The position numbers and the translations under genes were made by a program. The notes beneath the pieces are model-generated. The model was not told the origin of the DNA. It was given only the letters and a program-made list of their open reading frames with translations, and searched no databases. DNA of 64,000 nt from Escherichia coli (GTDB taxonomy: Bacteria > Pseudomonadota > Gammaproteobacteria > Enterobacterales > Enterobacteriaceae), in assembly GCF_003334785.1 (NCBI RefSeq), contig NZ_QOWV01000002.1; one strand, written 5' to 3'. Positions 7,419-57,972 of the stretch are shown piece by piece (the first letter of the stretch is position 1; each line of letters opens with the position of its first letter).

Positions 7419-7451
7419 AAAAAGGCGACACATTGGCATGTCGCCTTTTTT
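7419..7451. terminator. bidirectional intrinsic terminator between ypfM (+) and acrD (-)
   Basis: aaaaa-ggcgaca-cattggca-tgtcgcc-tttttt; A-run/T-run on both sides. Confidence 0.75.
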
Positions 7452-19787: not shown

Positions 19788-22067
19788 ATGGATGACCAGT
19801 TAAAACAAAGTGCACTTGATTTCCATGAATTTCCAGTTCCAGGGAAAATCCAGGTTTCTCCAACCAAGCCTCTGGCAACACAGCGCGATCTGGCGCTGGC
19901 CTACTCACCAGGCGTTGCCGCACCTTGTCTTGAAATCGAAAAAGACCCGTTAAAAGCCTACAAATATACCGCCCGCGGTAACCTGGTGGCGGTGATCTCT
20001 AACGGTACGGCGGTGCTGGGGTTAGGCAACATTGGCGCGCTGGCAGGCAAACCGGTGATGGAAGGCAAGGGCGTTCTGTTTAAGAAATTCGCCGGGATTG
20101 ATGTATTTGACATTGAAGTTGACGAACTCGACCCGGACAAATTTATTGAAGTTGTCGCCGCGCTCGAACCAACCTTCGGCGGCATCAACCTCGAAGACAT
20201 TAAAGCGCCAGAATGTTTCTATATTGAACAGAAACTGCGCGAGCGGATGAATATTCCGGTATTCCACGACGATCAGCACGGCACGGCAATTATCAGCACT
20301 GCCGCCATCCTCAACGGCTTGCGCGTGGTGGAGAAAAACATCTCCGACGTGCGGATGGTGGTTTCCGGCGCGGGTGCCGCAGCAATCGCCTGTATGAACC
20401 TGCTGGTAGCGCTGGGTCTGCAAAAACATAACATCGTGGTTTGCGATTCAAAAGGCGTTATCTATCAGGGCCGTGAGCCAAACATGGCGGAAACCAAAGC
20501 CGCATATGCGGTGGTGGATGACGGCAAACGTACCCTCGATGATGTGATTGAAGGCGCGGATATTTTCCTGGGCTGTTCCGGCCCGAAAGTGCTGACCCAG
20601 GAAATGGTGAAGAAAATGGCTCGTGCGCCAATGATCCTGGCGCTGGCGAACCCGGAACCGGAAATTCTGCCGCCGCTGGCGAAAGAAGTGCGTCCGGATG
20701 CCATCATTTGCACCGGTCGTTCTGACTATCCGAACCAGGTGAACAACGTCCTGTGCTTCCCGTTCATCTTCCGTGGCGCGCTGGACGTTGGCGCAACCGC
20801 CATCAACGAAGAGATGAAACTGGCGGCGGTACGTGCGATTGCAGAACTCGCCCATGCGGAACAGAGCGAAGTGGTGGCTTCAGCGTATGGCGATCAGGAT
20901 CTGAGCTTTGGTCCGGAATACATCATTCCAAAACCGTTTGATCCGCGCTTGATCGTTAAGATCGCTCCTGCGGTCGCTAAAGCCGCGATGGAGTCGGGCG
21001 TGGCGACTCGTCCGATTGCTGATTTCGACGTCTACATCGACAAGCTGACTGAGTTCGTTTACAAAACCAACCTGTTTATGAAGCCGATTTTCTCCCAGGC
21101 TCGCAAAGCGCCGAAGCGCGTTGTTCTGCCGGAAGGGGAAGAGGCGCGCGTTCTGCATGCCACTCAGGAACTGGTAACGCTGGGACTGGCGAAACCGATC
21201 CTTATCGGTCGTCCGAACGTGATCGAAATGCGCATTCAGAAACTGGGCTTGCAGATCAAAGCGGGCGTTGATTTTGAGATCGTCAATAACGAATCCGATC
21301 CGCGCTTTAAAGAGTACTGGACCGAATACTTCCAGATCATGAAGCGTCGCGGCGTCACTCAGGAACAGGCGCAGCGGGCGCTGATCAGTAACCCGACAGT
21401 GATCGGCGCGATCATGGTTCAGCGTGGGGAAGCCGATGCAATGATTTGCGGTACGGTGGGTGATTATCATGAACATTTTAGCGTGGTGAAAAATGTCTTT
21501 GGTTATCGCGATGGCGTTCACACCGCAGGTGCCATGAACGCGCTGCTGCTGCCGAGTGGTAACACCTTTATTGCCGATACATATGTTAATGATGAACCGG
21601 ATGCAGAAGAGCTGGCGGAGATCACCTTGATGGCGGCAGAAACTGTCCGTCGTTTTGGTATTGAGCCGCGCGTTGCTTTGTTGTCGCACTCCAACTTTGG
21701 TTCTTCTGACTGCCCGTCGTCGAGCAAAATGCGTCAGGCGCTGGAACTGGTCAGGGAACGTGCACCAGAACTGATGATTGATGGTGAAATGCACGGCGAT
21801 GCAGCGCTGGTGGAAGCGATTCGCAACGACCGTATGCCGGACAGCTCTTTGAAAGGTTCCGCCAATATTCTGGTGATGCCGAACATGGAAGCTGCCCGCA
21901 TTAGTTACAACTTACTGCGTGTTTCCAGCTCGGAAGGTGTGACTGTCGGCCCGGTGCTGATGGGTGTGGCGAAACCGGTTCACGTGTTAACGCCGATCGC
22001 ATCGGTGCGTCGTATCGTCAACATGGTGGCGCTGGCCGTGGTAGAAGCGCAAACCCAACCGCTGTAA
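19788..22067 (+). CDS. maeB: NADP-dependent malic enzyme (malic enzyme domain fused to PTA-like domain)
   Basis: 759-aa [26 protein letters not shown]. Confidence 0.95.
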
Positions 22068-22110
22068 TTTTTTTTAACTCTCACGCTTACCCTGAATATT
22101 CAGGGTAAGC

Positions 22111-22359
22111 AGTTTAGCTGCAATATATTAGTAAAGCTTATTACTGAGTTTGCGAATAATAAAAAAAAGCAGTCTATATAATATCTCGATATTATTTTAT
22201 TTATATTCATGCGTTGCATATGAAAGTTTATGCACCACAGCGAATATCTCTCCATTCTTAGTGATCTACCTCACCTTTTAAACGCGCTTGCCGAATTTTG
22301 TTATTTACTCTGACGAAAAATTGTCACGATACACGAAAGTTTTTCACAGGCGGCGACTC
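22111..22359 (+). promoter_or_regulatory. AT-rich region upstream of eutS; probable main promoter/EutR-responsive control region of the eut operon
   Basis: about 250 bp of AT-rich non-coding DNA immediately 5' of the first eut gene; no specific site resolved. Confidence 0.45.
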
Positions 22360-22695
22360 ATGGATAAAGAACGCATCATTCAGGAATTTGTGCCCGGCAA
22401 ACAGGTCACACTGGCGCATCTCATCGCGCATCCCGGTGAGGAACTGGCGAAGAAAATCGGCGTTCCGGATGCGGGCGCAATTGGCATTATGACGCTAACT
22501 CCCGGCGAAACGGCGATGATCGCCGGTGATTTAGCGCTGAAAGCCGCTGATGTGCATATCGGTTTTCTCGACCGATTCAGCGGTGCATTGGTGATTTATG
22601 GCTCGGTGGGCGCAGTAGAAGAAGCGTTATCACAAACCGTCAGCGGTTTAGGTCGCTTATTAAATTATACGCTTTGTGAAATGACCAAAAGTTAA
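22360..22695 (+). CDS. eutS: ethanolamine utilisation microcompartment shell protein EutS
   Basis: ORF 22288..22695 trimmed to [25 protein letters not shown] (111 aa). Confidence 0.9.
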
Positions 22696-36147: not shown

Positions 36148-36192
36148 CCTGTCGGAGGTGCCGGGTGTCCTACAACACCCGGCATTAACATC

Positions 36193-40745: not shown

Positions 40746-41729
<984 letters not shown>

Positions 41730-54989: not shown

Positions 54990-55017
54990 AAAAATGGCGC
55001 CGATGGGCGCCATTTTT
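54990..55017. terminator. bidirectional intrinsic terminator between convergent pdxK and crr
   Basis: aaaaa-tggcgcc-gatg-ggcgcca-ttttt. Confidence 0.8.
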
Positions 55018-57943: not shown

Positions 57944-57972
57944 CAAAAAAGCACCTAAAAAGGTGCTTTTTT
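57944..57972. terminator. intrinsic terminator downstream of cysK (hairpin flanked by A-run and T-run)
   Basis: aaaaaa-gcacct-aaaa-aggtgc-tttttt. Confidence 0.75.

Follow-up and report, generated by a model that had tools for sequence, protein, structure and literature searches.

What is the perfect palindrome that stands directly behind maeB in Escherichia coli? In the window (the whole 64,000-nt stretch of DNA analyzed here), maeB, the gene for NADP-dependent malic enzyme, occupies 19788–22067 on the plus strand as a 759-aa open reading frame that agrees with RefSeq E. coli annotation, including MG1655 b2463. The first gene of the eut operon, eutS, follows on the same strand at 22360–22695, placed by its open reading frame and by annotation. 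Between the two lies the palindrome GCTTACCCTGAATATTCAGGGTAAGC at 22085–22110, 26 bp long, perfect, and 249 nt from eutS. The initial annotation of this DNA described 12-bp arms around a 2-nt center, 18 nt past the maeB stop and ahead of the eut control region. The repeat is real and its context is as described, with two adjustments. The maeB stop codon TAA is at 22065–22067 and the palindrome starts 17 nt downstream. The repeat is also better stated as 13+13: a repeat finder returns two 13-nt arms that are 100% complementary with zero gap, the ‘ta’ center being self-complementary. Arms of 12 bp with a 2-nt center remain a valid description of the DNA but not of an RNA, in which two nucleotides cannot form a loop.

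Palindromes of this size are expected about 0.001 times in 64 kb. The pattern appeared in 0 of 100 shuffles, even with three mismatches allowed, and the window itself contains one occurrence at three mismatches. It is the longest among only seven perfect short-loop hairpins of the window. The others are at 7419–7450, 54990–55017, 57945–57972, 1276–1302, 36159–36184 and 40788–40810; the first three of these have the A-run, GC stem and T-run typical of bidirectional intrinsic terminators, and the hairpin at 7419–7450 corresponds to the one that the TRS table prints for the ypfM terminus (PMC10687069). The maeB–eutS spacer of the window is identical to that of E. coli K-12 MG1655, where the palindrome lies at 2576055–2576080 on the minus strand (NC_000913.3). 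Matching E. coli chromosome records annotate maeB and eutS on either side, and the palindrome itself carries no annotated feature.

RNA fold and tail sequence

In maeB-sense RNA the palindrome is predicted to fold into an 11-bp stem with six G-C pairs and an AUAU loop, at about −19.5 kcal/mol for the hairpin alone. Most E. coli have G rather than A at 22111, which extends the stem to 12 bp (C22084–G22111). The structure thus has the stability and placement of a terminator hairpin: 11–12 bp, about −19.5 to −22 kcal/mol, on the sense strand and 17 nt past the stop codon.

A terminator U-tract would hold about five or more U in the 8 nt after the stem; here the tail AGUUUAGC holds three. On the DNA, the plus-strand tail AGTTTAGCT has three T in its first eight positions and the minus-strand tail GTGAGAGTTAAAAAAAA has no U-run. 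A d’Aubenton-Carafa-style T-tract score gives 0.9 for K-12, 0.6–2.0 across E. coli variants, 2.3–2.65 for sister Escherichia and 4.5–5.6 for the orthologous maeB terminators of other genera, and a consensus promoter and terminator scan of the window made no call at the palindrome. The earlier statement that neither strand carries a U-tract is therefore essentially right, the tail being U-poor (AGUUUAGCU), and the view that this is not a canonical intrinsic terminator holds for E. coli by both the score and the scan. A bidirectional terminator was rejected, since maeB and eutS run in the same direction and no U-run follows the hairpin on the minus strand. An Rfam search at a permissive E-value returned chance-level matches only (E of 3 or more), all far below gathering scores.

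The U-poor tail at 22111–22122 (AGUUUAGCUGCA in K-12) is hypervariable among E. coli strains. Its variants are AGTTTAGC (K-12), GGTTTAGC (most strains), GGTTTGGC, GGTTTTCC, GGTCCAGC and GGTTAAGT. The variant GGUCCAGC, listed also as GGTCCAGC, has almost no U directly past the stem and is found in at most 546 E. coli records (up to about 10%), an upper bound that may include partial alignments. On the other side of the hairpin, the eight-T run right after the maeB stop (22068–22075) is found in K-12 and in genomes identical to it; most E. coli read TTCTTTTTT there and others TTCATTCTT.

Conservation in Escherichia and related genera

With a 36-nt query centered on the palindrome, 5,410 of 5,426 complete E. 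coli genomes each show a single locus; the two ‘places’ per genome that this search reports are the two strands of one palindrome. The initial annotation had proposed looking for the same palindrome upstream of other genes, and across E. coli genomes it has no second copy. A REP/BIME repeat was rejected on the same count. Like the REP/BIME elements that stabilize mRNA 3′ ends, the sequence is an extragenic palindrome at the end of an mRNA and could block exonucleases; it differs from them in being single-copy, and it bears no resemblance to the REP consensus.

Across about 5,400 E. coli genomes the palindrome is invariant while its flanks vary. When ten diverse E. coli genomes are aligned, none of its 26 columns varies, whereas the non-conserved spacer around it varies in 28 of 159 (17.6%; P ~0.0065). 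The stretch of the spacer that varies most is the 12 nt that follow the palindrome, with changes in 6 of 12 columns. The block at 22251–22359 varies in 3 of 109 columns within E. coli. The AT-rich 140–150 nt that separate the hairpin from this block (22111–22250) are Escherichia-specific and indel-prone, and in E. coli SCPM-O-B-8794 (L014) they are shorter and differ in sequence. E. coli strain 19AR0656 (NZ_CM132277.1; L002, 4113–4900) offers a natural deletion of terminator and eut promoter: an IS1 starts right after ...CAACCGC of maeB and gives maeB a new stop; the hairpin, the entire spacer, eutS and the 5′ portion of eutP are gone, with the IS1 in their place. A genomic SELEX study reports a binding peak of the RNA polymerase–RpoS holoenzyme in the eutS–maeB spacer (PMC5493296).

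Our sample of non-coli Escherichia consists of E. whittamii, E. sp. E1V33 and E. sp. MOD1-EC7003, and leaves out E. albertii and E. fergusonii. The first two species have GCTTACCCTGAGTAATTCGGGGTAAGC followed by GATTTTTATATT; MOD1-EC7003 has GCTTACTCTGGATTATTCGGGGTAAGC followed by GGTTTTATTGC. The sister tails are T-richer than those of E. coli (GATTTTTATATT, GGTTTTATT). None of the three species has an intact DNA dyad, and an extra base at the center changes the loop length by 1 nt. The RNA pairing is kept. Of the 12 stem pairs compared across Escherichia, eight are invariant and three have changed in a single arm, in each case to U·G or G·U on the maeB strand; the pair C22084/22111 is unpaired in K-12 only. 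On the opposite strand the same one-sided changes are A·C mismatches, and the predicted fold energies of the plus and minus strands separate accordingly: −20.7 vs −16.3 kcal/mol in E. whittamii and E. sp. E1V33 (L011, L012) and −19.7 vs −8.8 kcal/mol in MOD1-EC7003 (L013).

This one-sided G·U pattern is what an RNA stem on the maeB strand would predict, and the opposite of what a dimeric DNA site would predict, which gives modest grounds for an RNA-level reading. Covariation support for the stem is likewise modest: these species show three independent one-sided changes and no compensatory double change, and in a shuffle control of the pairing 500 of 500 shuffles reach the observed value, giving no separation. 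Queried against E. coli genomes, the E. whittamii version of the hairpin has no match, and the MOD1-EC7003 version finds only ordinary E. coli at about 82% identity. An exact look-up of the EutS protein returned only E. coli with the same hairpin.

To compare genera we scanned for EutS with one genome per species, which yielded 63 loci. Where eutS is the next gene after maeB (Citrobacter, the Klebsiella oxytoca group, Pseudocitrobacter, Yokenella), the two are separated by only about 158–160 nt. In 25 or more loci of Citrobacter, Klebsiella, Pseudocitrobacter, Yokenella and Salmonella, a GC-rich hairpin followed by T6–7 stands about 20 nt past the maeB stop, for example GGCGCGGGTTTCTCCCGCGC followed by TTTTTTATTT. 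This terminator almost abuts a block (TTCTTAGTGATCYACYTCACCTTTTAAA...GCCGAATTTTGTTATTTAC...) whose conservation reaches as far as eutS in every genus and also in E. coli. A terminator of this kind follows maeB in Salmonella diarizonae as well, even though eutS is 2.1 kb away. The E. coli palindrome sequence is absent from all other genera, in which an unrelated terminator hairpin holds the same position. Conservation across Enterobacteriaceae, a check that had been suggested earlier, thus extends to the position of a hairpin; the sequence is Escherichia-only, and among the Escherichia compared the perfect dyad is found in E. coli only.

Because other genera have their terminator at this place, the palindrome takes the position of the maeB terminator and falls outside the eut control block. 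A terminator role had been dismissed too fast, since in related genera the maeB terminator stands at the homologous position. The canonical intrinsic terminator of maeB in Citrobacter, Klebsiella, Yokenella and Salmonella has the form GGCGCGGG-loop-CCCGCGCC-TTTTTTATTT. The E. coli hairpin shares with it the position past the stop, the strand, a comparable stability and the job of separating maeB from eutS. It differs in a stem that is unrelated in sequence, longer (11–12 bp) and AU-richer, in a U-tract that is cut to UUU or lost, and in read-through that is sensitive to Rho inhibition. From this comparison of sequences, the hairpin appears to be the Escherichia replacement for the canonical GC-rich hairpin and U-run, with a U-tract that seems to have decayed further in E. 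coli.

The maeB boundary takes other forms in some species. Klebsiella pneumoniae ATCC 13883 (L037, 2783–2890) has two tandem hairpins after maeB, the first GC-rich without a U-run and the second followed by TTTTT, a different solution to the same boundary. In Intestinirhabdus alba (L039, ~470–500) the post-maeB hairpin GGCCCTTATCCC-GGCA-GGGGTAAGGGCC has no T-run and eutS is 2.5 kb away; this hairpin shares a CTTA.CCC / GGG.TAAG core with the Escherichia hairpin, by shared ancestry or by chance. Citrobacter amalonaticus (L024, ~2685–2900) and Citrobacter sp. MGH106 (L034, ~2770–2895) have an extra 125–210 nt between the maeB terminator and the eut block, containing an imperfect palindrome (…AACTTACTAAAGTAAGTGGCTGG…) reminiscent of ERIC/IRU elements. 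In two Salmonella genomes maeB and eutS are not adjacent: they are 2.1 kb apart in subsp. diarizonae (L016, 890–3000), and subsp. arizonae (L015) has no maeB within 3 kb upstream of eutS.

The block at 22251–22359, the presumed eut promoter and control region, is conserved from Escherichia to Citrobacter, Klebsiella and Yokenella directly upstream of eutS and excludes the palindrome. Within it, AGTGATCTACCTCACC at 22260–22275 matches 8 of 10 positions of the CRP consensus TGTGA-N6-TCACA, and its GTGATC...TCAC core is kept in Citrobacter, Klebsiella and Yokenella. It is likely a catabolite-control site for the eut promoter. A search of the eut literature for the sequence of an EutR binding site did not find one.

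Mapped 3′ ends and Rho dependence

Published maps of MG1655 place the end of the maeB transcript at the hairpin. One table lists a ‘Primary’ maeB terminus at 2576046–2576055(−) and prints the same hairpin, with −19.5 kcal/mol and three U downstream (PMC10687069). SMRT-Cappable-seq, which reads full-length primary transcripts, gives transcription termination sites at 2576049/2576050, flagged as novel for b2463 (maeB), and the reads that end there start at maeB promoters (PMC6131387). After conversion, checked against NC_000913.3, the steady-state 3′ ends at 2576046–2576050(−) (PMC6131387, Supplementary Data 1) correspond to 22115–22119 in the window. The 3′-end mapping proposed by the initial annotation can therefore be answered from two published datasets: maeB mRNA ends 5–9 nt past the stem, within or just after UUU. 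For the three start sites, the reads that end at the site, pass it by at least 50 bp or end within 50 bp number 11/0/12, 37/3/2 and 21/4/7 (PMC6131387). Only 0–12% of steady-state reads pass, with a median extension of 86–135 bp, and an extended maeB–eutS–eutP transcript variant is recorded in the same data (PMC6131387). The Term-seq tables of Adams et al. (2021), covering three conditions, list no maeB or eutS 3′ end (PMC7815308), and the TERMITe supplements have no maeB entry.

Read-through past maeB is sensitive to the Rho inhibitor bicyclomycin. In supplementary file 2 of Adams et al. (2021), 2575860(−) is entered as a Rho termination region with a Rho score of 5.50 (p = 1.5e-13) and read counts of 161 and 21, then 195 and 140 (PMC7815308). 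The printed score equals (140/195)/(21/161), and we took the columns as upstream and downstream, without and then with bicyclomycin, an order deduced from the arithmetic and the biology. With this column order the downstream/upstream ratio rises from 0.13 to 0.72 under bicyclomycin, in 800-nt windows to which new initiation in the AT-rich spacer or the eut genes could contribute. The listed position corresponds to 22305, about 195 nt downstream of the hairpin and just past a C-rich, G-poor patch at 22231–22310. This patch is a candidate rut (Rho-loading) region and the only one of its kind in the spacer; its excess of C over G is mild (C/G ~2.3–2.4), and the first 100 nt past the hairpin are AT-rich with C/G below 1. 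A literature search combining maeB and bicyclomycin gave nothing useful.

The combination resembles a known class. Dar and Sorek (2018) described E. coli transcripts that are terminated by Rho and whose ends lie at stable stem-loops lacking U-tracts, structures that shield them from PNPase and RNase II. They suggested that a change in U content can convert one termination mode into the other, and that cases with weak U-tracts use both modes (PMC6061677). The maeB end likewise has a stable stem-loop shortly past the stop with few U after it, a precise steady-state 3′ end immediately downstream, bicyclomycin-sensitive read-through past the gene end, and a mild excess of C over G further downstream. 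It departs from the class in its short UUU, which may allow some direct intrinsic release, the ‘transition state’ of those authors.

How the maeB transcript ends

Judged by its position, the pairing kept in sister species and the mapped 3′ ends, the palindrome acts as RNA on the maeB strand. We think it probable, though well short of certain, that it is the stem-loop that ends maeB mRNA, working both as a leaky, U-poor terminator and as a hairpin that protects the 3′ end, while Rho completes the insulation of eut. A polymerase leaving maeB would transcribe the hairpin 17 nt past the stop codon. Because only a short UUU follows, intrinsic release would be partial and the hairpin at best a leaky terminator. 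Escaping polymerases would continue into the untranslated spacer, where Rho would stop them in the space of some 200 nt, ahead of eutS or close to its start. Exonucleases working 3′ to 5′ would then trim the tails back to the hairpin and stall there. The outcome would be a stable maeB mRNA ending 5–9 nt past the stem, with the eut operon kept apart from maeB transcription. Such insulation agrees with the finding that on ethanolamine plus B12 MaeB is not co-induced with the Eut proteins (PMC11334477). The relative shares of intrinsic and Rho-dependent termination, like the trimming by exonucleases, are what we infer from these data. The earlier suggestion of an RNA processing hairpin stands as far as an RNA-level role is concerned, with a hairpin that defines or protects the 3′ end; processing of the RNase III type does not stand.

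The main rival is a plain Rho-independent terminator of reasonable efficiency, in which the 11–12-bp hairpin and (A/G)GUUU release most polymerases and Rho has no meaningful part. We regard this as a serious alternative, although a rather unlikely one. The 3′ ends in or near UUU and the 0–12% of SMRT-Cappable-seq reads that pass the site (PMC6131387) fit a fairly efficient intrinsic terminator equally well, and the positional homology to the canonical terminators of other genera and the T-richer tails of sister Escherichia also speak for it. It leaves unexplained the rise in read ratio under bicyclomycin. The low T-tract scores and the silent consensus scan count against it, as does the tail itself, the most variable part of the spacer next to an invariant hairpin and almost U-free in the GGUCCAGC records.

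Three further readings seem to us very improbable, the last of them slightly more so than the other two. The protein-binding site proposed earlier would be a DNA operator, a perfect dyad bound by a dimeric transcription factor for eut or maeB. A 26-bp perfect dyad that is invariant in about 5,400 E. coli genomes and lies upstream of the eut control region invites this idea, and the inner CTGAAT·ATTCAG, with its TGAAT/ATTCA-like half-sites, loosely recalls LacI/GalR-type (Cra-like) or ArgR half-sites. The half-site spacing is presumably unfit for either, since the central CG of Cra is missing and ARG boxes follow TGAAT-N4-ATTCA. Unlike such operators, the dyad has no repeat elsewhere in the genome and is not conserved in sister species, where one-sided changes and the central 1-nt insertion alter the half-site spacing and keep the RNA pairing. 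It is also absent from other genera that keep the eut control block, and in E. coli it lies 150 nt upstream of that conserved block, outside it. A full-text literature search for the core 16-mer CCCTGAATATTCAGGG returned no paper. The binding-site proposal is thus not supported. A second reading is that an endonuclease processes the transcript here, or that the hairpin forms the 3′ end of a small regulatory RNA originating in the 3′ untranslated region of maeB. The defined 3′ end beside a stable hairpin would suit it, and regulatory RNAs from 3′ untranslated regions are common in enterics. However, maeB has a 3′ untranslated region of only some 50 nt, which matches no Rfam family. RNase III needs about two helical turns, so a stem of 11–12 bp is too short and an RNase III site was rejected; a cruciform or SbcCD target was rejected as too short as well. 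The reads ending here are, moreover, full-length primary transcripts from maeB promoters (PMC6131387). Finally, the hairpin could be a functionless relic, such as a scar left when an insertion gave Escherichia its own AT-rich spacer; compared with the 158–160-nt spacers of Citrobacter and Klebsiella, this hairpin and some 150 nt of AT-rich sequence are indeed peculiar to Escherichia. An invariant hairpin amid variable flanks, pairing preserved across Escherichia species and RNA 3′ ends that map at the hairpin are not what a relic would show.

A maeB terminal hairpin of this sort is an ordinary transcript-end structure of a known kind. Both the hairpin and its 3′ end are already tabulated in published E. 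coli 3′-end maps and have never been discussed individually. This closes the question we began with: the palindrome is read as the maeB terminal hairpin and not as a new regulatory site. It marks the point of insulation between maeB and eut, which is useful for engineering or annotating the locus. A more speculative consequence, which we hold to be doubtful, is that a U-poor, Rho-assisted hairpin may make the maeB–eut boundary tunable in Escherichia. If so, transcripts started at the acetate-induced maeB promoter would run on into eutS and eutP whenever Rho works less well, or in certain growth conditions; both genes would then be expressed independently of EutR, and malic enzyme would be coupled to ethanolamine catabolism; read-through maeB–eutS–eutP transcripts are on record (PMC6131387).

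The sole mildly interesting aspect is evolutionary. The locus looks like a clean natural case of terminator turnover, with a textbook terminator in related genera, an intermediate form in sister Escherichia and a U-poor, Rho-sensitive form in E. coli. This gradient fits the published idea that U content shifts a terminator between intrinsic and Rho-dependent modes.
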